This document shows positions 1,645-17,971 of a stretch of DNA of 18,102 nt, in pieces. Numbering within the stretch: the stretch's first letter is position 1; the number at the start of each line of letters is the position of its first letter. The stretch lies in assembly GCA_039714075.1 (NCBI GenBank), contig JBDLKA010000076.1:1-18102 (forward strand), in the 5' to 3' direction. The DNA comes from Candidatus Krumholzibacteriota bacterium (lineage in GTDB: Bacteria > Krumholzibacteriota > Krumholzibacteriia > LZORAL124-64-63). A model generated the notes under the pieces. The model was given only the letters and a program-made list of their open reading frames with translations, ran no database searches and was not told where the DNA came from. The translations under genes were made by a program, and so were the position numbers.

Positions 1645-4227
1645 TCACTCCACCCGAGTCTTGAAACTCACGCTGAAGCCGGGATGGTTCACCCCGTCCG
1701 AGGCGGCAAACGCACCTTTGGGCACCACGCGCATGTGCGTCACCACGGGGTCGAAACCCAGGACGTCGGGCACTGGCACGTAGTTCCAGGTGGCGCCGCC
1801 GTCGCTGGAAAACTCCAGGTCGTCGGCCGGATCCGCCAATCCGCCGTAGGTGTAGCTCATCCCCCCGGGCGTCACACCGTCCGCGAAAGCTACCGGTCCG
1901 GATCCCGCACCCGCGAAATCACCCACGAAAACCGCCGTGTTCGCCGGGATGGGATCGGTCATGGCCAGGGCGTCGGCGTCGGCCGGACCCGGGCCCGTAT
2001 TGACCGCCGTGATGACGTTCAGAACCACCGCCCCGGGGATGGCCTTGGGATTGGCCAGCAGGTTCACGGGATCCGATTCGGTCACCGTGGTCTTGCTGAC
2101 CAGGATGTTGGGGACCAGCGCGGTCACCGCGGTTACACCGCCGAACTCCGAAGTGGATCCACCCATCGTGGCGGTCATGGTCAGCAGGTCGCCCGTGACC
2201 ACGCCGGCCGGCAGCGGGATCACGAACTGGAAACGGTTGGTGTTGTCCTGGCCGACCGGAACTCCGTTCACCGGCAGGGGACCGTACAGGCTGGTCGTCC
2301 CGTCCAGGTCCAGCGCCGAACCCTCGGTCAGGGTCGTGACGTAGGTTTCCCCTTCCCCCAGGCCCGACGGGTCGGCGGCCGCGATGAACATTTCGATCAT
2401 CGAGCCCGGCCGCGCCCAGCCGCTCAGGGTAAGTTCGCCGCCGACGTTGAGCGCCGATTCCAGCACCGGGAAATTCAAAAGGTCATTGCCGCCCGCATCA
2501 CCGTCGCCGTTGTCGTTCAGGGTATAATAGGGAGCCACGCCGCTACGATCGTTTTCGCCGCCGGCCAGCAGATCGATCCCCACCTGGCCCGTGGGCGCCC
2601 ATCCGCCGGTATTGGTGATGGTGCCGTTCCCGTAAATTGAATTCCGGGTAATGGTCACCGCGTTCGCCGCCGGAACGACCATCACGCCCGCACCGTAATT
2701 CTCGGCCAGGACGTTGCCCTGAACCAGGAGGCCGCCGCTGACAACCCGCACGCCCGGGGTTTCCGTGCCGCCGATCGCGGCCATACCGTTGCGGCGGATC
2801 GTATTATCAAGCAGGGTGATTGCCGCCGAACCGGCCTCCACATCCACCCCCGCGCCACCGTTTTCGTGGATCAGGTTTCCGGTCACCGTGACATTCGAAC
2901 ACCCGTCCAGGCTGAGGCCGTTCTGCGCCCCGTCGGACTGGGCGTTGGCGAAGATCTCGTTGCCTTCGATCAGCCATCCGTCGGTACCCGCCCGCGCCTC
3001 GACGCCGTGCCGGTCGCTGAAGGCGATCAGGTTTCCGTGGAGCGTCCCGCCGGTCGCCCCCGCCAGGGTGATCACCGGCACCGACCGCCAGGCGCCGGGA
3101 TCGGTGAATCCCCCGGGACCCGTGCCCAGGACATTTTGTTCGATGATCGTGCCGGCGCAAGTCTCGACCAGAATGTTCCCCATGGCCGCACTCCAACCGA
3201 AACTCGAAAAGCTGTGGACCGAAAGGTTGCGCACGGTCGTCAGGTCGGCCTGGATGCGCAGTCCGAACAACGTCCCGTTGGAACCGGCAATCTCGAGTTC
3301 GGGCCGGGCGACCGTCGCCACGGCCGCGCCGCTCGTTCCTACCCCTCCTCCGGTTCCCAAAACACCTGGATTCGCATCGAGGATCGCGACTCCGTTCGCC
3401 GCGTCGAAGGCCACGCCGTCCACTGTCGTTCCCGGGTCCGTCAGGGCCGGCAGATTGGCAGTCAGCGACAAACGCCACCACTGTCCTCCACCGCCCGAGG
3501 CATTGGGCGCCACCGCCGGGACGAAGCGCATCACGTTGTCACCCACCATGGCGTTGGCGTTGACCAGGAACTGCCGCAGGCTGCCCTGCACCGCGGTGCT
3601 GCCTCCGCCCAGCGGATTGGTCACCACGGTGAAGCTGAAGCCGAAATCGATATTGTCGGCGTGGGGACCGCTGACGTCCGCCCGGCCCACATGCTGGTAA
3701 ATATTATCCGCCGGATTGGTGCTGCCCGTGTTGAAGCCGTCCGAAACCCCGGGGGTCGCCCCACCGAAGCGCGGCCCCACATCCAGGGCGATGGTGGTGG
3801 GATCATCTCCCACCGTCTGCTGGGCCCAGACGTTCGCCGGGCCGAATCCGCCGTTGAAACCCGCCGAAGGGCTCATGCCCCGGGAATTCACCGCCACCAG
3901 GTAATAATCCCCCGTGGCATTGGTCTCGACCTTGAAATTGAAGGCCCCCGAGGCGTTGGTGGTATGTTCCTCCAGGAAGGTGTCGCCCGCGTCGACCAGG
4001 CCATTGTTGTTGCCGTCCCTGTACAGGCGCACACCCAGCCCGCTGGTTTTAAAGTCGCCCACGAGGGAACCGTCGCCCAGAATGTCCTCGTAGACCGTGC
4101 CGCGCACGGTGCGGCGCCGGGCCTCAGCCGTATCCGCCCAAAGAACCGACCCCGCGACCACCAACAACAACATCATTGCCCGCAGTGCTTTTCCTTTATC
4201 CATGGTCATGCCCATTATCCTATTCAT
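1645..4227 (-). CDS. Exported multidomain surface protein/adhesin: SdrD-B-like N-terminal domain, right-handed parallel beta-helix, Ig-like domain, C-terminal truncated DUF11; putative tip subunit
   Basis: Signal peptide ...LLVVAGSVLWADTAEA. 'VRGTVYED..GDG...V.LYRD.NNNG..D.GD......TNASGAFNF' (SdrD-B/CnaB-like). Repeated 'I.GN.I..N...G' beta-helix turns. 'IDL....TLNDNGDGD.GGN.LLNFPVL'. C-terminal 'ILVSKT...AIPGA....I...NTG......TDPIP'. ATG 4227 overlaps the upstream stop; downstream ATGs (4215, 4209, 4203) are alternative starts. Confidence 0.85.
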   Translation of the reverse strand: MNRIMGMTMDKGKALRAMMLLLVVAGSVLWADTAEARRRTVRGTVYEDILGDGSLVGDFKTSGLGVRLYRDGNNNGLVDAGDTFLEEHTTNASGAFNFKVETNATGDYYLVAVNSRGMSPSAGFNGGFGPANVWAQQTVGDDPTTIALDVGPRFGGATPGVSDGFNTGSTNPADNIYQHVGRADVSGPHADNIDFGFSFTVVTNPLGGGSTAVQGSLRQFLVNANAMVGDNVMRFVPAVAPNASGGGGQWWRLSLTANLPALTDPGTTVDGVAFDAANGVAILDANPGVLGTGGGVGTSGAAVATVARPELEIAGSNGTLFGLRIQADLTTVRNLSVHSFSSFGWSAAMGNILVETCAGTIIEQNVLGTGPGGFTDPGAWRSVPVITLAGATGGTLHGNLIAFSDRHGVEARAGTDGWLIEGNEIFANAQSDGAQNGLSLDGCSNVTVTGNLIHENGGAGVDVEAGSAAITLLDNTIRRNGMAAIGGTETPGVRVVSGGLLVQGNVLAENYGAGVMVVPAANAVTITRNSIYGNGTITNTGGWAPTGQVGIDLLAGGENDRSGVAPYYTLNDNGDGDAGGNDLLNFPVLESALNVGGELTLSGWARPGSMIEMFIAAADPSGLGEGETYVTTLTEGSALDLDGTTSLYGPLPVNGVPVGQDNTNRFQFVIPLPAGVVTGDLLTMTATMGGSTSEFGGVTAVTALVPNILVSKTTVTESDPVNLLANPKAIPGAVVLNVITAVNTGPGPADADALAMTDPIPANTAVFVGDFAGAGSGPVAFADGVTPGGMSYTYGGLADPADDLEFSSDGGATWNYVPVPDVLGFDPVVTHMRVVPKGAFAASDGVNHPGFSVSFKTRVE

Positions 4228-7200
4228 GCGGACCACCCATGAAGGCCTTGAGGATGGTGCCCGCGGTTTCCTGGTCGAATTTCAACCGGAAGCGCAGGAA
4301 CGGTCCCTGGGCCGTGAAATCGGCGGCCGAGAAGTCTGCGTCGTAGAAGCCGATGAAGTTGTAGCCCAGGCTCATCCAGACATTGTTCATCACGTTGAAT
4401 CCGAAAGAACCCCCGGCGCTGTAGTCGATCTGCTTCGCGTACCACGAGTGCAGGCCGCTCAGCCTGAAGCCCAGATCCATCCGCGGGCTCAGGTTCTGCC
4501 GTACTTCGCCGCCGAGCAGATCGGTCAAACCCTTGTAGCGACGGCCGGCGATGTCGTCCTGGTTGTACTTGATCCCGTGCTGCAACGCGATCTGGGTGTT
4601 GCGGCCCGAGTAGTAGGTCAGATTCAGATGATTGACGATGCGCCAACCCGACAGATCGGTCGTCAGCGAGTAGCGTTCCTCGGTTACCCAATCCAGCCGG
4701 TCCAGGATGACCCAACCCTCGCGGTCCGGCCGCAGGGCCAATCCCAGGCGGATGTCGTATTTCCTGCGCCGGGATCCGGCCTCCCCTTCGGTGCCCGCGA
4801 TCCGGGCCTTGCCCGCCACACCCAGGCCCGAGCGGGGTTCCACCAGCACGCTGGGCACCACGGCCCATTTGTCGTCCAGGGCCGAGTTGCGGATCTCGAA
4901 GCGACTGTTCCATTGCCAGCGCTCGGCGTTGTAGCCCACGGCCGTCGAAATTGCCGTGAAACCGGCCAACGCCCCCGAAGCGGGCGGGACGTTTTCGTTG
5001 ACCCGCGGTGTGTCGAAACCCTCGGTCGCTTCGCTGTGATCCAGGCCGAAGTCCATGTTCCAGTGATCGCTGACCTTCCACAACTGGCGCAGACCCAGAT
5101 TGGCGAAGGCCCGCGACCCGTTTTCGGTGAAGCGCCGTTCCCAGCTGCTGGTAACACGTCCGCCGGTCCACGGTTTGGTCTCGAAACCGAACCGGGCGCC
5201 GCGCGTGTCCCCCGCCGCTCCGTTGGTGATTTCATAACGGGACAGCAGGTTCAGGTTGCGGACGATTTCAAAATCGGCGCCCAGCGTGGTCCGCGTGGGG
5301 TAGTCCACGTTGCGGTTCTCTCCATCCAGCGACTGCTCGTGGTCCGCCGAGAATTTCAACCGCCGGTTCCGCGTGCTGATTTCCCCGCCGCCGGTGATCT
5401 GGGTCGAACCGTGGTCGTTCAGGACCGTGAACCTGTCCTCTACCCACCGCCCGCCTGCGTGGATACTGAAGATCGAATCACGCCACTGCAGCTTGCCCTC
5501 GATGTTGTCCCGCCGCGAACCGTTGGCCAGGTTGTCCTGCCGCCAGGTCTGGCTCTTGAAGGTCAGACGGGAATTCATTTTCCAGTCCAGGTCCACCCCG
5601 AGCTTGCGCGTGCCCGCTTCACTCCGGTTCTGCTGGCCCAGCCCGAAGCCGACCTCGTTCTGCCTGACGTAGGCCCGGGCGCCAAACCGTCCCGCGGTGT
5701 TCTTGATTTCCGCCAGGTAGGCGTCGTGCCGTCCGGTCATATCCGTGTCGGTAACGACATACTCGCCTTTCAACTCGGTCTGCGGCCCGAACCGGTAACG
5801 GCCGTCCCAACCGATCAGTTCACCCTTGCCGGCGTTTTCCTCCTGGTGAATGAAGGTCGTGCCCAGCTCCAGCTTGCCGCCGGCCGTGGTGACCGCCCCG
5901 CGACCGCCATAATTGTTGTAATCCCCGTCCCTGCTGCGGGTTTCGTAGTTCACCACGATGAAGATCGGGTTCAGGTTCTCGTCCCTGCTCCAGATGGGCT
6001 CCTTGAAGTAGAGCGAGCCGTCCTCATGATCGATGCTGTAGTCCAGATGGCGGGTCAGCTTCCGCGAACCCAGGATGACCTCGCTGCGGAACCGGTCCCG
6101 CACCTCGATCGTGATCTCCTCCGAGTTGATCACCAGGTCACGGCGCGTCAGGTAATACATGCCGCTGGTACCGTCGCCGCGGATCTCATCACGCATATAA
6201 CCGTGGCCGGTCTGGTTGGCGAACAGGTTCAGACCCACGTGTTCGGACTTCAACTCGGACTTGATGCCGTTGAAGTTTCGCGTGTAGCCCGCCAGCTCAT
6301 TGATGGACAGGCCCGTATTGTAGTCACCGAACAGGGCATAGAACTGGCGGCGTTCGATCTTGACGTAGAGCTTGCGCGAACTGGACGCATCGTAGTCCTG
6401 CCGCGAACCGTCGCCGTACAGCGTGAAGTACTGGTCCGGGTCGATCTCCTGGTACAGGGCGCCGGTGTCCCCGTCCCAGTCCTTGCCGGTGTCGAAGGCC
6501 AGGGTCGCCAGCCACTCGCCCCTGATGCTGCCCTTGGCGTAGAAAGCCACCCGGCCGTCGCTGTACCACCTGTCGTCCGGCGCGTTGCCCTGCAGGGGTT
6601 CCATGTTTCCGTTCAAGGTGTTGTAGCCCACGGTTCCCTCGGCCAGGCCCACCAGGATCCAGTCACGGGCGCCGGGTTCCAGCCAGGTTCGCATTTCCTG
6701 CTGATGGCCCTGGAAATGGAAGTGCAGGACGGTTTCGCCCGTCTTGGTCGTGGGCTGCAGCCTGACATGCGCAACCCCGTCCGCTCCCACCACATAGCTG
6801 GGTCTCTGGCGTCGCATTCCGACCAACGGATCCTTCTGGAAATCCTCGAATTCCTGTTGGGACATGTGGGGTGCGTCCACCGTGAATTCCCCGATGATTC
6901 CTTCACGCGCGGGCTGCCCGTCGCGGTCGGTCAGACGCACGGCGATCACGGGCAGGGTCTTTCCGTCCGCCGTCAGGGTCGACTGTTCGGGCAGCATGGT
7001 CGCCAGGACCGGCGGGCTGGCGTAGTGGACATAGCGCGCCTTGCGCCACAGTTCCTTGCCCTTTTCATCGCGCCCGACGGCCACGAACAGGTTCTCCCCT
7101 TCCTTGAGATCGATCCCCGTCCAGATACTGACCGCCACCATGCCGTCATTACTCGCTTTGACGCCGTCGAAATTCACCGCCTCGACCGGCCGGCCGTCCT

Positions 7201-10153
7201 TGATCAGATCGACATGCTTGGCCTCGCTGTGCTGAACGGCGATATCCAGGCTCGGTATCGACGGCCGGTGGTCCACCGGCGGCCACACCCAACCGTCCAC
7301 CGGATCCGCCGCATCCAGCCAGGCCTTGTCGATGTCCGGCATCACCGGAGGCGCCTGGGGTTTGGGCTTGGCTTCCTCCGCACGCAGCCGTGCTTCGCTG
7401 GCGGTGATGCCCACCGTCGGCGTGGTCGTGTGTTCGACCCGGGACACGGTGTCGGTGCTGGCCTGGTTGAACTTTTCGGCCGTGACCACTCGCAGTTCCA
7501 CCCGCCGGTTGAGTTGCCGGCCCTCGCGGGTGTTGTTCGGCGCCACCGGGTTGTCGGGACCCTGGCCAACCAGGGTTATCTGTTTCGCTTCCAGGTCCAG
7601 CGCCGCGCCCAGATACTCCCCGATAGACCGCGCCCGCGCCATCGACAGGACGTAGTTGTCCGCCCAGGTCTTCTGCCCCCGCGGGGTGATGGGCACGTTG
7701 TCCGAATGGCCGGTCACGTGCATGTGCAGCACCTGTCGCGACTTAAGCAGGTCGGCCAGCTGGTTCAGTTCCTGGTAATAGTCCTCGTGAACCGTGGCGC
7801 TGAACGTCTTGAAGCGCGGACGCAATACCACATCCGGCTTCAGGGTCAGCATCTCGTCCAGTTGTAGGCCGACGATCGTGGTGATCGGATCGGTGCGCCG
7901 GATTTCACCGTTGGGCATGGTGAAGGTCAGCTGCGCACCCACCGGCAGGTCACGGCTTTCACTCAGATTGGTCAGATCGGACTCGAACCGCAGCACCAGG
8001 TTCGAATCGGCGTCCGCGCCATCCAGGCCAAAGGTCAGAAAATTGTCCTGGATGTCGGGATCCCCGCAGACTTCGCCGTCCAACCTGGCGCTGCCCGTGC
8101 GGTAGGCCACCCCATCGGGCAGGATCACGGTCAGGACAAGTTTTTCGAGATCGATGGAACCCTCGTTGATGTTCATGCGGCAACTCAGGGTCGTCCCTGT
8201 CCGGGAGGTCGCCAGTTCCAGTCCGACCTCCCCTTCGGGGATGGGTTCGGGGATGAAGTGCAGGTTGAAGTCCGCCCGCCACAGGGTTCCACCCTGGATA
8301 TCGACGAAGCGCGAATAGGGCCGGCCCGCGGAACGTGTGTCGTCCACGCAGGCCAGGGGTTCATGGCGGTCGGGCAAAGTGGCCACGTCGATCTGGACTA
8401 CGTGCGCTCCCGCAGGTACGCCCTCGAAGTGGTAACGCCCGCCGTCGTCGGTGACGCTGAAGGATCCATCCTCCAGGAAAACCCGCACGCCGGGCACGCC
8501 CACCCTTTCCTCGTCGCGAGACAGTTCGCATTCACCCACCACCACGCGCCCGGTGATGAAGCCGGTGTCGCGGAAGTAGGCGTCACGGACCTGGGTGTAC
8601 ACCACGGCTTCGCCGGAGGAAACCCCCTCCTCCGCCTTTGCCCGCGCGGTGCTGACCACCTCGCCGGGGCGGGACCCTGCGGCAACCTCTATCACGTACT
8701 GGATCTGGATGACTCCGAAGATGGGAATGTCACCCAGGTCGAAGTACAGGGTCCGGCCGTCCGCGGACATCCGCGGGATGATGGTCCCACCGCCTTCGGT
8801 GGTCGCGGAACCGTCCTGGAAAGCGAAGCCCGGCGGCAAATTGTCCGTGATGACAGTCTGCAGCGCCGTGCCGACGCCCCGGTTCTGCAGGCGTATGGTG
8901 TATTGCAGGAAATCACCCTGGCTCACCAGATCGCGGTCGGCGGTTTTGGTCAAGGCCAGCTGGTCCGAGGTCGGTATCGGGTCCATCGGCACGTCAAGAT
9001 TGAGCGCGGGACCGGGATTGACGGAGAACGGTTCGCCCCGCGAACCCGGTTCGGCGATGGCGAACGGCGCGCCGGGCAATAGCTGGAGATTGGCGGTCGG
9101 AACGTTTGACGGAGCCGTGTAGGCCAGCGGACTTTCTATCTCCAGGCGATAGTCTCCGACCACCACGAACGGGAACCGGAATCCACCCGGCGGGAAATCG
9201 TACTGGTGTCCCCCGGTGTCCACCACGGTGCCGCCCGAAGTGATGGTCGCGGGGAAGATGCTGGCCCCGTCGTCACCGAACACCACCGCGGGAAGTCCCG
9301 TGGCGGTATTGATCATGGTGATCACGGCCCCGTCGACCGGCAGGCCGGTGACGCTGTCGAACACATGGCCGGTGGGGTCGATCAGGGCGGTCACCGAAAC
9401 GTTGTCGGTGGGGTCGAGGACATCCACGTAGGACGCCTCGGCGGTCTGGTCGGGTTCCACGGTGAGCATCGGATCCAGGGCCCGCGGCGCAATGCCGCCT
9501 TCGGTCTGGACATAACCGACGAATTCACCGGTGTCGGGACCGGTTTCCGTCACCTGAAGCAGGATGTCGTCCCCATCCGCCAGGACTTCCACCCTGATGA
9601 TGACCGTTTCACGCACGGCCGGATCCAGGTTCTGGTCCAAATCTCCCACCCGAATGAAAACGGGTTCACCCTGATGGATCAGGGTCCGCGCCGTCAGCGG
9701 CAGCGGTTGGCTCAGGTCGAGCGGCTGGACCCTGCCCGGCGGCACCGGCGGCGGCAGCGCCATGAACACCCCGGTGGGCGTCCCGTCGGTGCTGTATGAC
9801 GTTTGCGCCACGTTGACCATTTCGGCGTCGGTGCGATTCGGCGCGTACTGGAGAAGTTCAATGGCGGCCGGAGTCCGCAAATCGACCGTGACGATGGTCA
9901 CCAGATTGGACTCGGCGAAAAGGTTGTCGGTGCCGTCCACGGAATAGTTCGCGGTGGCGATGTTGTCGATGATCGTCCCGGGCGGGCTCTGGGCGAACCC
10001 CCGGGTCGGCGCGGCCAACATCCCCACTGTGAGAACGAAAAGCCAAAGGGCGAATGCCGTGGTCCTGAACAGACGGACGCCCGGACATGTCTGAATGACA
10101 CTTCCGGGACGCCCGAACCTGTTCATGTTGCTAAACCGTTTTGCCACTGGCAA
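4220..10153 (-). CDS. Very large outer-membrane protein: N-terminal Ig/CarboxypepD-like and DUF11 domains, central OmpA-like peptidoglycan-binding domain, Ig domains, C-terminal large beta-barrel
   Basis: 1977-aa ORF with signal peptide ending RGFA. 'GHVFDSVTGLPVDGAVITM'. DUF11 'LALTKTADRDLVSQGDFLQYTIRLQN...ITDNLPPGF'. OmpA-C motif 'VTGHSDN...DNYVLSMARA...GPDNPVAPNNTREGRQLNRRVE' (~7480-7830). About 800 aa of amphipathic beta-strands ending 'GPFLRFRLKFDQ'. Start uncertain (TTG 10153 or ATG 10126). Confidence 0.88.
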   Translation of the reverse strand: MPVAKRFSNMNRFGRPGSVIQTCPGVRLFRTTAFALWLFVLTVGMLAAPTRGFAQSPPGTIIDNIATANYSVDGTDNLFAESNLVTIVTVDLRTPAAIELLQYAPNRTDAEMVNVAQTSYSTDGTPTGVFMALPPPVPPGRVQPLDLSQPLPLTARTLIHQGEPVFIRVGDLDQNLDPAVRETVIIRVEVLADGDDILLQVTETGPDTGEFVGYVQTEGGIAPRALDPMLTVEPDQTAEASYVDVLDPTDNVSVTALIDPTGHVFDSVTGLPVDGAVITMINTATGLPAVVFGDDGASIFPATITSGGTVVDTGGHQYDFPPGGFRFPFVVVGDYRLEIESPLAYTAPSNVPTANLQLLPGAPFAIAEPGSRGEPFSVNPGPALNLDVPMDPIPTSDQLALTKTADRDLVSQGDFLQYTIRLQNRGVGTALQTVITDNLPPGFAFQDGSATTEGGGTIIPRMSADGRTLYFDLGDIPIFGVIQIQYVIEVAAGSRPGEVVSTARAKAEEGVSSGEAVVYTQVRDAYFRDTGFITGRVVVGECELSRDEERVGVPGVRVFLEDGSFSVTDDGGRYHFEGVPAGAHVVQIDVATLPDRHEPLACVDDTRSAGRPYSRFVDIQGGTLWRADFNLHFIPEPIPEGEVGLELATSRTGTTLSCRMNINEGSIDLEKLVLTVILPDGVAYRTGSARLDGEVCGDPDIQDNFLTFGLDGADADSNLVLRFESDLTNLSESRDLPVGAQLTFTMPNGEIRRTDPITTIVGLQLDEMLTLKPDVVLRPRFKTFSATVHEDYYQELNQLADLLKSRQVLHMHVTGHSDNVPITPRGQKTWADNYVLSMARARSIGEYLGAALDLEAKQITLVGQGPDNPVAPNNTREGRQLNRRVELRVVTAEKFNQASTDTVSRVEHTTTPTVGITASEARLRAEEAKPKPQAPPVMPDIDKAWLDAADPVDGWVWPPVDHRPSIPSLDIAVQHSEAKHVDLIKDGRPVEAVNFDGVKASNDGMVAVSIWTGIDLKEGENLFVAVGRDEKGKELWRKARYVHYASPPVLATMLPEQSTLTADGKTLPVIAVRLTDRDGQPAREGIIGEFTVDAPHMSQQEFEDFQKDPLVGMRRQRPSYVVGADGVAHVRLQPTTKTGETVLHFHFQGHQQEMRTWLEPGARDWILVGLAEGTVGYNTLNGNMEPLQGNAPDDRWYSDGRVAFYAKGSIRGEWLATLAFDTGKDWDGDTGALYQEIDPDQYFTLYGDGSRQDYDASSSRKLYVKIERRQFYALFGDYNTGLSINELAGYTRNFNGIKSELKSEHVGLNLFANQTGHGYMRDEIRGDGTSGMYYLTRRDLVINSEEITIEVRDRFRSEVILGSRKLTRHLDYSIDHEDGSLYFKEPIWSRDENLNPIFIVVNYETRSRDGDYNNYGGRGAVTTAGGKLELGTTFIHQEENAGKGELIGWDGRYRFGPQTELKGEYVVTDTDMTGRHDAYLAEIKNTAGRFGARAYVRQNEVGFGLGQQNRSEAGTRKLGVDLDWKMNSRLTFKSQTWRQDNLANGSRRDNIEGKLQWRDSIFSIHAGGRWVEDRFTVLNDHGSTQITGGGEISTRNRRLKFSADHEQSLDGENRNVDYPTRTTLGADFEIVRNLNLLSRYEITNGAAGDTRGARFGFETKPWTGGRVTSSWERRFTENGSRAFANLGLRQLWKVSDHWNMDFGLDHSEATEGFDTPRVNENVPPASGALAGFTAISTAVGYNAERWQWNSRFEIRNSALDDKWAVVPSVLVEPRSGLGVAGKARIAGTEGEAGSRRRKYDIRLGLALRPDREGWVILDRLDWVTEERYSLTTDLSGWRIVNHLNLTYYSGRNTQIALQHGIKYNQDDIAGRRYKGLTDLLGGEVRQNLSPRMDLGFRLSGLHSWYAKQIDYSAGGSFGFNVMNNVWMSLGYNFIGFYDADFSAADFTAQGPFLRFRLKFDQETAGTILKAFMGGPHE

Positions 10154-10186: not shown

Positions 10187-11275
10187 CTAGTCGATAATGA
10201 CCGAGAAGGTTTCCGTCGCTGCCGATGCGGCGGCCACGGTGAGGTAGACCACCCGGACATCGGTCACGGCGGGGTCGGTTCCGTTGGCGCCGGGCACCGG
10301 ACCATAGGCCCAGGTCGCACCGCCGTCGTTGGAGTAGGAAACCACCGCGGCCGGAACCGTGGCGACCGATCCCACCAGGAACGCGCTGTTGGCCGGGACC
10401 GAATCGATGACCTCGACGTTGTCCGCGGCCAGGGTACCGGAGTTGGTCACCAGGATCGTATAACCGACCGTTGCGCCCGGAATCGCCTTCGGGTTCACGG
10501 CCAGGTTGAAGGGATCGCTGATCACGCTGGTCGTCTTCATGGCGGTCAAGGTGGTGGTGATGACCTTGTATCCGTCCTTGCTCGAGAACCGGCCGTCGGT
10601 AGCTCCGTCGGCCGTACCGGCGCCGTCGCCGAACACGATCTGGATCAGGGCCGGGTCGTCGGCCGCGGCCGCGTCATCGGCGAGGATGTCCGCGCCCTGG
10701 GCGCCACCGGTGCCGCCGGCGGCGGTCTGTGCGATCAGGTCGTAGGAAGCGACATCGTTGTTGACCTGGACCAGCGGGATATCGGACAACACGAACACCG
10801 TGATGGAGGCCCCGGAAGCCAGTTCGTCGATATAGGTGTCGGTGTCGGCGGCGGTGTAGGTGTTGTCGGCGTCGGTATCGACGTAGACGTTCACGTTGAC
10901 CGCGTTGAAGGTCTCGACCTCACCGAAGGCACCGGTGGGCGAATTCAAGGCCGACAGGGAGTAATCCTGCACCGTGTTACCGTTATTGGTCACGGCATAG
11001 GTCAGGACCTGGGCTAAGCCACCGGGAATCACGGCAACGATGGCAGCATCGACCGTGGTCACGGTCAGGTCGACCTTGTTGTCCACCAGGAAACTGGCGA
11101 TGTTGCTGACCACCTGCGTCTGCGGCGTACCGCTGACGGAGAAGTCGAGGGTCGCCGTGTTGTTGATCGGCGTGCCCGAAGGGGTGTTCTGTGCCAGAGC
11201 GATCGAGGACAGACCGAACACCAGGGCGCCGGCCAGCAGGATCACGAACAGGTTCTTTTTGCTACGGATCGTCAT
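10187..11275 (-). CDS. Exported DUF11-family protein, 362 aa; candidate major fibre subunit
   Basis: ATG 11275 with AAGGAGG RBS. Signal peptide ending SIALA. N-terminal 'TPSGTPINNTATLDF'. Middle Ig domain 'IPGG...LTYAVTNNGN'. C-terminal DUF11 'LTAMKTT...AIPGATVGYTILVTNSG...VIDSVP...TFSVIID'. Confidence 0.88.
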   Translation of the reverse strand: MTIRSKKNLFVILLAGALVFGLSSIALAQNTPSGTPINNTATLDFSVSGTPQTQVVSNIASFLVDNKVDLTVTTVDAAIVAVIPGGLAQVLTYAVTNNGNTVQDYSLSALNSPTGAFGEVETFNAVNVNVYVDTDADNTYTAADTDTYIDELASGASITVFVLSDIPLVQVNNDVASYDLIAQTAAGGTGGAQGADILADDAAAADDPALIQIVFGDGAGTADGATDGRFSSKDGYKVITTTLTAMKTTSVISDPFNLAVNPKAIPGATVGYTILVTNSGTLAADNVEVIDSVPANSAFLVGSVATVPAAVVSYSNDGGATWAYGPVPGANGTDPAVTDVRVVYLTVAAASAATETFSVIID

Positions 11276-11305: not shown

Positions 11306-11779
11306 TTACTGCAACTGTGCCCGGAAGGACACGCTTCCCTCGGCGCCCGGCTCCAGAGGATTCTGGAAGGTCCAGCGCACGTGGGTGAAATCGGACTCCT
11401 TGGCAGGGCGCGGTTGGCCCTTGGCGTCCGTGACGGTCAGGTTCCGAGGCGCGTCGTAGCGTGACCCGCCGTCAGCCGACATGCTGACGGTGGCCTGGTA
11501 CGGGCTGTCCTCCACCTGGGTGAAGACCATGTGGTCGGGGATGGGATTGGTGATCACGACGTCCGCCGCGGGTTCCGTCCCGTGGTTGGCGAAAGTGATC
11601 GTGTAGATGACCTCGTCGCCGGGAACGACCTTGCCGGCCTCCACGCGCGTGGTCACTTCCTGCCCCTCTTCATCGGTCGTGGTGATTTCCGTAAGGGCCA
11701 CGGTGTTCAACTCGACGGCCGCATTCGCGACGCCGGCCGACAACAGGACCAGAACGGTGATGGTTAGCACTCTTTTCAT
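11306..11779 (-). CDS. Small exported single-DUF11 protein, 157 aa
   Basis: ATG 11779 with GGAGGAG RBS. Signal peptide ending VANA. 'VVPGDEVIYTITFANHGTEPAADVVITNPIP...VRWTF..LEPGAEGSVSFRAQLQ'. Confidence 0.9.
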   Translation of the reverse strand: MKRVLTITVLVLLSAGVANAAVELNTVALTEITTTDEEGQEVTTRVEAGKVVPGDEVIYTITFANHGTEPAADVVITNPIPDHMVFTQVEDSPYQATVSMSADGGSRYDAPRNLTVTDAKGQPRPAKESDFTHVRWTFQNPLEPGAEGSVSFRAQLQ

Positions 11780-11808
11780 GACTTTCTCCTCCTTCTTTGG
11801 TTCAACGT

Positions 11809-12798
11809 TCAATCAATCGTGACAGTGAATGTGATCGTCTGTCCGGGACCGCCGACGGCCACGTCACCGATTGCCACGGTGATCGTGCCCGATGTTGTGC
11901 CGCCCACATCACCGTTGTCGCCGTCGAGGGCGTCGGTGACGGAGGCTCCGTTCAGCATCAGGGTGCCCGGGTTGTAGGTTGTGTTCAGGGGAATGTCGTC
12001 GCTGATCACGACGTTACTGGTTGTGCCCGTTCCGGTTGCGGTCACGGACAGCTCATAGGTGATGGTGGCTCCGGTTACCGGCCGCGATCCCCCGAAGGGG
12101 TCGACCACCACGGCGGATTTGAGAATGGCCAGCTGCGCGGACAGGGGCACGATGCGGTAGGTTCCCCGATCGTCCGCCAGGCCTCCACCGGCGCCCACCA
12201 CCGCATCCACGCCCATCTCTCCCGCCCCGACGATGACCTCCCCGGGGTTTCCGCTTCCCGTATTGGAGACGACGTCCAGACGGCTGTCCCCCAGCTGGTC
12301 CACGAGGGCGCCGGACGGGATGTCGTTCAGCAGGAACAGCATGGTGAAGGCGTCCGCGGCCAGGACCGGGTCATTGCCGCCGGGGATGTAGAGTTCGTCG
12401 CTGCCCGGGTCGAAGCTGCCGTTCCCGTTGGTGTCCAGGTGGATGTTCGTCAGGTTGGGGTCGAAGTCGTCGCCCGTCAGCGTGCTGAGGCCCGTCAGCG
12501 CGTAGGAGTCGCTGCCGTTGCCGATGTTGGTCAGCCGGAAGGTCAAGGCCTGGCCACCGGCGCCGGGCTGGACCGCAACCGGCGCGGCGTCCTGCCACAC
12601 CAGGCTGAGATCAAGCACCTCGGCCACCGACGTGGTCACGGTGTTGCTGACACCGGAGTAACCAGTACCGGTGATGGTGTAGTTGATGATCGCCTGGCTG
12701 GTGATGTCGGTACCCGCGGGCGTGCCGCCGGCAAAGGCGCAAGCGGCCCCAGCCAGGCAGAAAACCGTTACCGGAATCAGGCGAGAAATAAGCCTCAC
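11809..12798 (-). CDS. Exported DUF11-family protein, 329 aa; candidate minor/adaptor subunit
   Basis: GTG 12798 with GAGGGAAGGA upstream. Signal peptide ending ACAFA. N-terminal 'GTPAGTDITSQAIINY'. 'VQPG....LTFRLTNIGNGSDSY'. C-terminal DUF11 'LAILKSA...TGATITYELSV...VVISDDIP...ITFTVTID'. Confidence 0.87.
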   Translation of the reverse strand: MRLISRLIPVTVFCLAGAACAFAGGTPAGTDITSQAIINYTITGTGYSGVSNTVTTSVAEVLDLSLVWQDAAPVAVQPGAGGQALTFRLTNIGNGSDSYALTGLSTLTGDDFDPNLTNIHLDTNGNGSFDPGSDELYIPGGNDPVLAADAFTMLFLLNDIPSGALVDQLGDSRLDVVSNTGSGNPGEVIVGAGEMGVDAVVGAGGGLADDRGTYRIVPLSAQLAILKSAVVVDPFGGSRPVTGATITYELSVTATGTGTTSNVVISDDIPLNTTYNPGTLMLNGASVTDALDGDNGDVGGTTSGTITVAIGDVAVGGPGQTITFTVTID

Positions 12799-13182
12799 GA
12801 AATCGGATCCTTCCCTCGGCAAATGACGGCGCCCCGGACGAGGGATGGACCCGTCCCTGGGGCGTTCGGGTCCAGCGCCGATCCTTCGGCGCGTAACCCA
12901 TTACTGGCTCTTGTTTTTTCGGGAATTCAAGGGGACGGCTTTAGGGGGATATTCGCTGGGAGGGCACAAGGAACTATAATAATTGCAGGATTTTATCTTA
13001 TTTCTTGGTTTTTTGCATTTTCATTATCGCCCCAGGCCATTTCGATTCTTTGCGAGTCGGGATTCAGGAGGATTTTTGTCGTGACCGGCTCGATATTCTC
13101 AATTAGGATTCGGTTCAACATCATTGAATGACACATCTCGCTCAGAACATTGGATTCGAAAAAACCCTGGAGGGAGTCACTC
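12799..13182. promoter_or_regulatory. Divergent intergenic control region: AT-rich core plus GC-rich hairpins in the DUF11-operon leader
   Basis: Non-coding gap between divergent starts. AT-rich 12970-13030. Inverted repeats gcgccga/tcggcgc (12875-12892) and cgcccc...ggggcg (12830-12864). Exact promoter boxes not assigned. Confidence 0.55.
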
Positions 13183-13719
13183 ATGTTCAAGAAAATCCTG
13201 TTCCTCACGTTGGTGACCGCGGTCCTGTGCCCCCTGACGGCCATGGGCAGCATCTACTTCGGAGCCGGCATCGGAAACTCATGGCAAAGCGCGACCGTCG
13301 AGGCCGGTGATGTATTCGACGAGGTATCGGAGATCAGCCAAAGTTCAACCGGTTGGAAGATTTTTGCCGGTTTCAAGAGCGAGAGCATTTTCGGCATCGA
13401 GGGCGGTTACCGGGACCTGGGCAAGGTCGAGTCCCCGTTTGCCGGATTGAATTACGGGATCAGCAGCGACGGCTGGGACATCGCCGCCATGGGCCACCTG
13501 GAAATCGCGATCATCGATCTCTTCGCCAAGGCGGGCGCCTTTTTCTGGTCCACCGATTCCAACTTCATCGGTGACGACAGCGGGACCTCCTTCCTGTGGG
13601 GTCTGGGTGCGGGGGTTTCCCTCGGGCCGGTCGGTATCCGGCTCGAATGGGAAAGCATGGAGGTTGGATCGATGGACAATCTCTCGATGTTGAGCCTGGG
13701 GGCAACTTTCGGGTTCTAG
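13183..13719 (+). CDS. Small outer-membrane beta-barrel protein (OmpA transmembrane-like / OMP_b-brl), 178 aa
   Basis: ATG 13183 after GGAGGGAG. Signal peptide. 'IYFGAGIG', 'GWKIFAGF....FGIEGGYRDLG', 'DLFAKAG', 'WGLGAG', 'IRLEWE', C-terminal 'LSLGATFGF' BAM-type terminal Phe. Confidence 0.9.
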   Translation: MFKKILFLTLVTAVLCPLTAMGSIYFGAGIGNSWQSATVEAGDVFDEVSEISQSSTGWKIFAGFKSESIFGIEGGYRDLGKVESPFAGLNYGISSDGWDIAAMGHLEIAIIDLFAKAGAFFWSTDSNFIGDDSGTSFLWGLGAGVSLGPVGIRLEWESMEVGSMDNLSMLSLGATFGF

Positions 13720-16784: not shown

Positions 16785-17078
16785 CTACCCCAGTATCGAA
16801 TCCAAGTCCTGGGCCGCGCCGAGAATGCGTGCTATTTCTACGGGCTTGCTTCCCGATATGTAAACAACCATGTAGGAATAAACTGGAAAGAACCTAACAG
16901 CCCGAGATGTCAAGTCATCGCGATAGTGCCCAGCCTCGGGATTCTCAGCCAGCAGTTGGAATACTTCAAAAAACCGAGCATGAACATCAAGCGCTGACTG
17001 GACGTTATCTGCTGCAATGTACTCCAGTATTGCATCGAAGTCGGCTTCAGCCTCATTCGAGAAAATATAATCGGACAT
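16785..17078 (-). CDS. parE: Type II toxin, RelE/ParE family, 97 aa
   Basis: 'FSNEAEADFDAILEYIAADN..A......F..LAENPEAGHYRDDL....RFFPVYSYMVVY......IARIL' ParE pattern; starts 1 nt after the antitoxin stop. Confidence 0.9.
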   Translation of the reverse strand: MSDYIFSNEAEADFDAILEYIAADNVQSALDVHARFFEVFQLLAENPEAGHYRDDLTSRAVRFFPVYSYMVVYISGSKPVEIARILGAAQDLDSILG

Positions 17079-17079
17079 A

Positions 17080-17337
17080 TCAGCTCAACCGCGAGAGCAA
17101 TTTGGCCTTGAGCTCAGCCATTACAGTTTCGCCGTCACGCAATTCGCCACGTTCAACCTGGTCAATTCCTTTTTGAATCTCGCCTCGGATAGACTGTAAC
17201 CTCGCCTCAAACAGTTGCTCCTTCTCACGCATTAGCCGAAGGCCATCACGAACGACCTCACTGACGGAGGCATAGTCGCCAGACTCGACCTTCGCGCGGA
17301 CATATTCTTCGAATTCTCGCCCAACAGAGACATTCAT
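17080..17337 (-). CDS. parD: Type II antitoxin, ParD family (ribbon-helix-helix), 85 aa
   Basis: 'MNVSV..EFEEYVRAKVESGDYASVSEVVRDGLRLM...L..IR.EIQKG' signature; GGAGG RBS before ATG 17337. Confidence 0.92.
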   Translation of the reverse strand: MNVSVGREFEEYVRAKVESGDYASVSEVVRDGLRLMREKEQLFEARLQSIRGEIQKGIDQVERGELRDGETVMAELKAKLLSRLS

Positions 17338-17369
17338 AGCCTCGCCTCCCATAGCTGATGTGTGGTCTC

Positions 17370-17408
17370 AGCATACAGCAACACGGCAACAATGTCAATT
17401 TTTGACAT
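17370..17408 (-). promoter_or_regulatory. Sigma70-type promoter of parDE with overlapping palindromic operator
   Basis: Minus strand TTGACA (17398-17393), 17-bp spacer, TATGCT (17375-17370). Palindrome ATGTCAA-N3-TTGACAT at 17392-17408 covers the -35 box. Confidence 0.8.
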
Positions 17409-17465
17409 CGGCTTGATCACCCGGCCGCCAGGCCAACGCCTTGAGAGAAGCTAACTCTTTACCCA

Positions 17466-17564
17466 ATACAATGTTGGGTTCATCTGCAAACGTGTTTGGC
17501 GGGCGCTTGGAGCACGCCAAGCGCATGCCAAATCTCGTTTGTCAGGTGGAAGCTCCTGTTAAAC
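17466..17564 (-). mobile_element. Integron attC site, 99 bp
   Basis: Minus strand: R'' GTTTAAC (perfect RYYYAAC), AGGAGC, TTCCACCTGAC, AAACG..TTTGGC..GCGCTTGG/CCAAGCGC..GCCAAA..CGTTT long stem, GCAGATGAA, CCCAAC, ATTGTAT. Begins 8 nt after the doc stop. Confidence 0.87.
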
Positions 17565-17572
17565 TGATTCCC

Positions 17573-17971
17573 TCAGTCCGTCGACTCCGTAAGGAATTTC
17601 TCAAAAAACTCAACCACTTGGTCCTTGGACAATTGACCTGAAGCAACCCCCAGGGTGAGTTCTTCAATTTCGTCGTCAGTGGCCGACAACTCGTGGCCGT
17701 TGATTAGCAAAAAGACTTCTGAAGCCGCCACAGCAACCCGCTTGTTGCCATCAACGAACGGATGATTTGCACACAGGTGAAAGTGGTATGCCGCCGCCTT
17801 GCCGGCTAAACCAGCATGAAGCTCATTGCCACCAAAAGTTGATTGCGGCATAGCCGCTGCAGATTCAAGTAATCCACGATCGCGGAGGCCTGAGTCCCCA
17901 CCGAATTCTTCAATTACACGGCGATGAACCAGCAGGACGTCGTCTACTGACAAGAAAGCTACTAGCTGCAT
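17573..17971 (-). CDS. doc: Death-on-curing (Doc/Fic family) toxin, 132 aa
   Basis: 'VLLVHRRVIEEFGGDSGLRDRGLLESA', 'KAAAY..HL..NHPFVDGNKRVA' (Doc-type HPFxDGNKR). Confidence 0.93.
   Translation of the reverse strand: MQLVAFLSVDDVLLVHRRVIEEFGGDSGLRDRGLLESAAAMPQSTFGGNELHAGLAGKAAAYHFHLCANHPFVDGNKRVAVAASEVFLLINGHELSATDDEIEELTLGVASGQLSKDQVVEFFEKFLTESTD

Follow-up and report, generated by a model that had tools for sequence, protein, structure and literature searches.

CLIPPER domains of adhesin stalks, in the available part of their description, are whole domains with an intramolecular Lys-Asn bond (PDB 9IFR; PMC12617251), in which the cross-link joins Lys to Asn, with Asp presumed to act as catalyst (PMC12617251, section 2.4). 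In PapD/FimC-type assembly, according to the accessible part of the source, the chaperone donates its G1 strand to the groove of a subunit (PMC13721041). ElrE of the Enterococcus Elr pilus is presented in the available portion of the preprint as a chaperone, anchored in the membrane, which primes the pilin by donor-strand complementation (bioRxiv 10.64898/2026.10.17.759780). For BsaA of Clostridium perfringens, an 'exchange and lock' mechanism combines donor-strand exchange with an intermolecular Lys-Asn isopeptide bond, the acidic catalyst lying in the recipient; the word chaperone is absent from the accessible part of that text (bioRxiv 10.1101/2024.11.04.621531).

The window, that is, the whole stretch of 18,102 nucleotides of a Candidatus Krumholzibacteriota contig (JBDLKA010000076.1) analysed here, carries an operon of which no description was found in the literature searched. 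One of its genes (11306-11779, minus strand) encodes a 157-aa acceptor-only DUF11/CLIPPER protein, recognised by its open reading frame, family matches, profile alignment and AlphaFold model. Its sequence places it within DUF11; it is neither a CLIPPER isopeptide domain nor a PapD chaperone. The initial annotation suggested a chaperone or a cap, and its chaperone inference appears partly supported: an exported half-domain of this kind, without the reactive Lys and catalytic Asp, is likely a soluble periplasmic chaperone that binds donors non-covalently, a reading favoured here over a cap with a probability of roughly 55%.

Compared with CLIPPER, the 157-aa protein is a free half-domain that lacks the Asn strand, Lys and Asp and carries two inserted hairpins. 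As in PapD/FimC systems, so far as the cited source covers them, the proposed periplasmic partner would stop donor-strand subunits from joining before the outer-membrane barrel, but it would receive subunit strands and the fibre would be covalent. Instead of the two Ig domains PapD_N and PapD_C, it has one domain of 137 aa, and it gave no PapD or usher family match in Pfam and NCBIfam at E 0.1. No PapC/FimD usher is encoded alongside; the giant protein of the operon consists of OmpA, DUF11 and unnamed barrel-like parts, with no usher match. ElrE is comparable in that it, too, stands outside the PapD type, and it guides the donor-strand exchange of a pilus unrelated to this one, although in its available description it is Gram-positive and membrane-anchored, donates a strand and serves a pilus with sortase anchoring. 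Archaeal threads reportedly also lock donor-strand exchange by an intermolecular Lys-Asn isopeptide bond. These threads and BsaA differ from the present system in their TasA-type or thread folds and the lack of an outer membrane, and no decoy acceptor is described in the portions of text available. If the chaperone reading is true, a decoy acceptor would be the opposite of the strand-donating PapD/FimC and ElrE, as the accessible accounts depict them, and suited to irreversible joints; it would show periplasmic control of a self-welding polymer without sortase and provide natural tag-catcher modules as a matched set, one covalent and the other non-covalent. Since the operon is present in cultured cyanobacteria, Novosphingobium and Pacificitalea, with Picosynechococcus NIES-970 and Kovacikia among the cultured carriers, the idea is directly testable.

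The operon and its predicted fibre

The genes follow one another on the minus strand. A 337-aa pilin-like gene (11809-12822) is separated by 29 nt from the 157-aa gene, whose stop comes 30 nt ahead of the ATG (11275) of a 362-aa gene (10187-11275), which confirms its annotated place just upstream of the putative major subunit. Next come a gene for up to 1977 aa (4220-10153) and an 863-aa beta-helix gene (1645-4236). The major subunit comprises a donor hairpin, a middle Ig-like domain and an acceptor; its Asn39 (11159-11161), Lys247 (10535-10537) and Asp291 (10403-10405) are invariant in all 37 aligned sequences. The upstream protein, probably a minor pilin, has an N-terminal donor hairpin and a C-terminal acceptor with Lys235 and Asp275. 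The 863-aa protein, a putative tip adhesin, has a beta-helix head and a C-terminal acceptor with Lys715 and Asp761, and no donor match was found in it.

The giant protein, a candidate assembly platform and anchor, contains a donor hairpin with Asn (9962-9964), a whole DUF11, a carboxypeptidase-regulatory-like domain, an OmpA peptidoglycan-binding domain and, probably, a C-terminal outer-membrane barrel, a prediction for which the lead came from ESM Atlas names and a Porin_4 share of 33%. Its donor is probably periplasmic, being placed before the peptidoglycan-binding OmpA domain. The pilins thus show the order donor-middle-acceptor, the tip has only an acceptor and the giant protein only a donor; from this order, a chain of tip, minor pilin, n copies of the major pilin and barrel protein, each accepting the donor of the next, is possible.

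The minor pilin donor carries Ser (12697-12699) in place of the reactive Asn, which might make the link with the tip a non-covalent one in this lineage; among 36 relatives, Asn occurs in 26, Ser in 9 and Cys in 1. The whole DUF11 of the giant protein (8650-8960, minus strand) keeps Lys and Asp and has VVSTARA at the expected Asn site, and for this reason it probably forms no internal bond. A gene for a small OmpA-like eight-stranded barrel (13150-13719, plus strand) is transcribed away from the operon. Three short genes at 16785-17971 (minus strand), in a stretch of lower GC content, presumably represent a toxin-antitoxin pair of the ParE/ParD type together with a Doc-like gene.

Structure of the small acceptor protein

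The 157-aa reading frame starts with ATG and encodes a 20-aa signal peptide ending in ANA (Sec type, read by eye) followed by a mature domain of 137 aa. It matches Pfam DUF11 (PF01345) with E 4e-8 and 33.9 bits, above the curated cut-off of 24.6, over model positions 3-54 of 114, and TIGR01451 with E 7e-11 and 42 bits (curated cut-off 24); both matches cover the N-terminal half of the models. The protein has the CnaA-like Ig beta-sandwich of DUF11/CLIPPER and lacks the last two strands of a complete CLIPPER domain: in a profile alignment built on 800 of 3187 canonical DUF11 repeats, its last aligned model column is 86 of 111, short of the Asn strand and the very point at which the pilin acceptors stop, and its last strand in the AlphaFold model is 147-156. 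The donor profile matches this absent Asn strand (E 3e-4). A pattern test found the donor motif in none of 241 database relatives, in agreement with the annotation of a single truncated DUF11 without an N-terminal donor. The closest named relatives, with 82-87% identity, come from Candidatus Krumholzibacteriia bins. TTHA1873 of Thermus thermophilus (PDB 7WRK, 7WWN, 7WWO), which stands alone as a protein and has a dimeric crystal form, was among the top fold matches, its score tied with those of unrelated Ig folds, and it gave no sequence match to the small-protein family profile at E up to 10; its kinship to the family is a lead only.

Most, although not all, of the groove-lining positions stay hydrophobic among the relatives. 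Positions 22, 59, 61, 74 and 76 are hydrophobic in 86-100% of sequences in four sub-families, which counts for a chaperone. Two hairpins are inserted in the domain. The first, residues 29-47 (11639-11695, minus strand), lengthens the first strand (model strands 22-35 and 41-47; coupled pairs 29-45 and 31-43), and the second spans residues 113-126 (11402-11443, minus strand; model strands 115-117 and 123-125; coupled pairs 116-124 and 31-124).

These hairpins raise the possibility of an assembly factor acting through another surface, either with hairpin 29-47 filling the acceptor groove of a pilin, in the PapD direction, or as a plug or adaptor of the barrel. The hairpin is long and exposed in the AlphaFold model, Glu31 (35/36) and Arg124 (36/36) are conserved in operon copies and relaxed in stand-alone ones, and the linkage, composition and ribosome-site data given below fit equally well. 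Such a factor would also protect the open groove of the pilin, whereas in the donor-binding model the pilin's own open acceptor is left unprotected in the periplasm, which counts against that model. Hairpin 29-47 is, however, unlike the donor profile (hhalign probability 0.65%), and a hydrophobic, client-dependent groove of the protein's own would be unneeded, so this alternative is rather unlikely.

Reactive residues

Both cross-linking residues had been reported as lost, which is correct for Lys. The first strand, VELNTVALTE, has no Lys, and the residue standing for it varies with the method: Thr26 (11702-11704, minus strand), the best-supported counterpart, by coevolution transfer, Ala28 (11696-11698, minus strand) by MAFFT and Thr30 (11690-11692, minus strand) by hhalign with low column confidence. 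The motif ITNPIP indeed has Asn78 (11546-11548, minus strand) where pilins carry Asp in the alignment, but Asp is the presumed catalyst and not a cross-linker; the cross-linking Asn is gone with the missing strands. Because CLIPPER cross-links Lys with Asn and Asp is presumed to catalyse, what the truncated chain has lost at these two positions is one cross-linker and the catalyst, and with Thr26 (or Ala28/Thr30), Asn78 and no Asn strand it has no Lys-Asp-Asn triad.

Conservation of the loss in orthologues, which had been suggested as a check, was found for the pair and, in the best-supported register, for Lys, and not for Asp. The complete Lys and Asp pair is absent from at least 492 of 503 relatives, whichever alignment register is used. 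Lys does not occur at position 28 in any of 503 relatives, nor at position 26 in any of 497, a count that does not amount to 497 independent votes since the loss may be one ancestral event. Under the hhalign register, 209 of 503 relatives keep a Lys, including all 120 cyanobacterial copies, and 11 of the 503 combine Lys30 with Asp/Glu78. The loss of Asp is incomplete (Asp or Glu kept in 25/503) and lineage-dependent, with 9 of 20 members of one subtype keeping Asp.

Lys and Asp are invariant in 37/37 major and 34/34 minor pilins and kept in 8/8 tips. This bears on the cap reading, in which the protein would sit non-covalently, as cap or nucleator, on the donor left free at the fibre's far end, and the number or length of fibres would be set by how much of it there is relative to the major subunit. 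Its acceptor-only topology is that of a tip, and in many loci no tip gene lies within the flank that was retrieved, a tip match being present in 7 of 56. On the other hand, dedicated tips retain the chemistry, from which a cap would benefit as well, the 157-aa protein has no adhesin head, and pilin-bearing genomes hold more acceptor-only matches elsewhere. An acceptor without chemistry would fit a part that must release, while the tip retains it; a reactive tip is already present for the cap role, which counts for the chaperone.

Linkage to pilin genes

Among 56 GTDB loci of the small gene, 44 adjoin pilin genes, 11 are isolated copies and a contig end truncates the remaining 1; these and the following counts include kin, and hence non-independent loci. 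All 43 pilin loci in 151 Steroidobacteraceae-family genomes adjoin the small gene. In the same phylum, Krumholzibacteriota (151 genomes), all 10 genomes that carry a short-type major have it adjacent, and 20 of 20 further small-gene loci have a long major adjacent, one of them split. Another class, sampled with 300 genomes, gave 17 donor-positive ones, of which 16 have it, the exception lying at a contig end. Annotated plasmids of two cyanobacteria and of two alphaproteobacteria carry it beside the major.

Several arrangements deviate from the one in the window. In Chromatiales-like loci (L015, L019, L025, L027, L031, L035), which follow flagellin/fliD/fliS-like genes, the small gene is first, the minor pilin is missing and position 78 is Ile or Met. 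At L185/L192 (G570:C36), two divergently oriented small genes that differ in subtype lie on either side of a single promoter region, each by donor-bearing genes. Some pilin-bearing genomes also encode, far away from the operon, proteins of about 860-1060 aa whose C-terminal part matches the acceptor (G089:C1:3478644, 2633636; G148:C1:3266272, 197290); these are possibly interchangeable tips encoded in trans. Locus L066 (G003:C8:863500-883400) has a related OmpA-plus-barrel protein and one 2119-aa repeat adhesin without donor pilins, and is a two-gene relative of the platform.

Ribosome-binding sites and composition

The strong ribosome-binding site reported for the 157-aa gene was recovered as GGAGGAG at 11786-11792 (minus strand), 6 nt 5' of the ATG; its duplex energy of -11.7 kcal/mol is about equal to that of the major subunit (-11.4). 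With the start taken from about two to three candidate sites, the best being chosen, median Shine-Dalgarno energies are -9.6 kcal/mol for the small gene, -10.0 for the major, -6.4 for the minor and -3.8 for the giant gene (n = 46, 42, 36 and 21). In 20 independent loci the values are -11.6 (small), -9.1 (major) and -6.7 (minor). Parity with the major fails in a set of 29 loci (-6.9 versus -8.0, minor -6.6) and in a fourth set (-6.5 versus -8.0 kcal/mol), and both failures count against a chaperone. Judged from these predicted energies, the ribosome site exceeds the need of a one-per-fibre part. Mature small proteins contain 16.8% Glu+Lys+Arg (11.7-24.1, n=43), three to four times more than the two pilins (4.3% and 4.8%, maximum 9.2%), and the ranges do not overlap.

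Parity with the major in two of the four sets would suit a subunit, structural or decorating, that is present stoichiometrically over the length of the fibre. Such a role is highly improbable: the protein has no donor for chain extension, each pilin in this genome has a single donor match, which a linear chain uses up, and the composition differs from that of pilins. The family does not display the marks of a pilin or tip, a donor hairpin and/or Lys with Asp, the former occurring in 0/241 and the latter in at most 11/503 relatives. For the cap, too, the charged composition is unlike that of fibre proteins, and the ribosome site is far stronger than that of the giant gene in 20 of 21 paired loci, which leaves the cap clearly unlikely. 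Taken together, gene order, ribosome-site strength, composition and the retained hydrophobic groove favour a chaperone rather than a cap.

Proposed mechanism

When an acceptor with Lys and Asp receives a donor, the Lys-Asn isopeptide weld would be irreversible, and free donors would therefore need masking in the periplasm. The 157-aa protein would present an equal groove without the chemistry and keep the N-terminal donor hairpins of the pilins in a reversible complex up to their assembly at the predicted outer-membrane barrel; the reactive acceptor of the last-added subunit would displace it. Possibly, it also binds the donor of the barrel protein itself, delaying termination. More speculatively, the two inserted hairpins might form a surface for docking to the platform.

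Stand-alone copies

In the Steroidobacteraceae sample, 46 of 89 small-gene matches have no adjacent pilin, which counts against the chaperone. Ten genomes have both kinds of copy, and in 36 a full pilin is absent at E 1e-10. This cut-off overlooks long-type majors; one genome affected in this way has a separate operon that includes a small gene of its own. A donor was not found in three of four orphan-only genomes examined, one of them nearly closed. All 32 orphan loci examined occupy one chromosomal site, flanked by what we take to be a divergent PEP-carboxykinase-like gene and a run of DinG-like helicase, tsaB-like and phoB/phoR-like genes. The clade (L041, L044-L046, L048-L052, L054, L055, L127-L146) contains 30 of 31 distinct orphan sequences with support 99/94 and is nested among operon copies, so the orphans are derived.

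Pairwise identity of the groove is 0.42 in orphans versus 0.66 in operon copies (other core positions 0.65 versus 0.69), a divergence that may be inflated as 20 orphan loci were hand-picked from lower-scoring matches. Asn78 is found in 2 of 31 orphans versus 28 of 36 operon copies, and orphan ribosome sites are weak (median -3.3). The loss of groove conservation in copies parted from pilins supports, at the level of sequence, a groove that depends on its client. The orphans are under purifying selection, dN/dS being 0.13-0.50 in nine of their pairs as compared with 0.08-0.37 in eleven pairs of operon copies; given this and the lack of a donor in three of four orphan-only genomes, the DUF11 half-domain fold has a second use beyond the chaperone model.

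A pilus-independent envelope function, with the small gene merely travelling with the operon, would explain a clade fixed at one site under purifying selection, and other stand-alone copies adjoin motA-like genes. It is nevertheless very unlikely, as the orphans are derived, with weak ribosome sites and degenerate grooves, and the small gene is kept beside the major pilin across cyanobacteria, alpha- and gammaproteobacteria, Nitrospirota and Krumholzibacteriota. The chaperone reading can be extended to a wider proposal, tentative and somewhat short of even odds: an undescribed isopeptide-welded pilus made from a split CLIPPER domain would exist in diderms of many phyla, the 157-aa protein would represent a new kind of chaperone, in which an acceptor devoid of catalysis masks the donor hairpin as a natural reversible catcher beside natural covalent ones, and a derived clade would have been reused pilus-free.

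Further stand-alone copies were seen at L177, L179 and L184; two of them lie upstream of motA/motB-like genes and keep Asp78.
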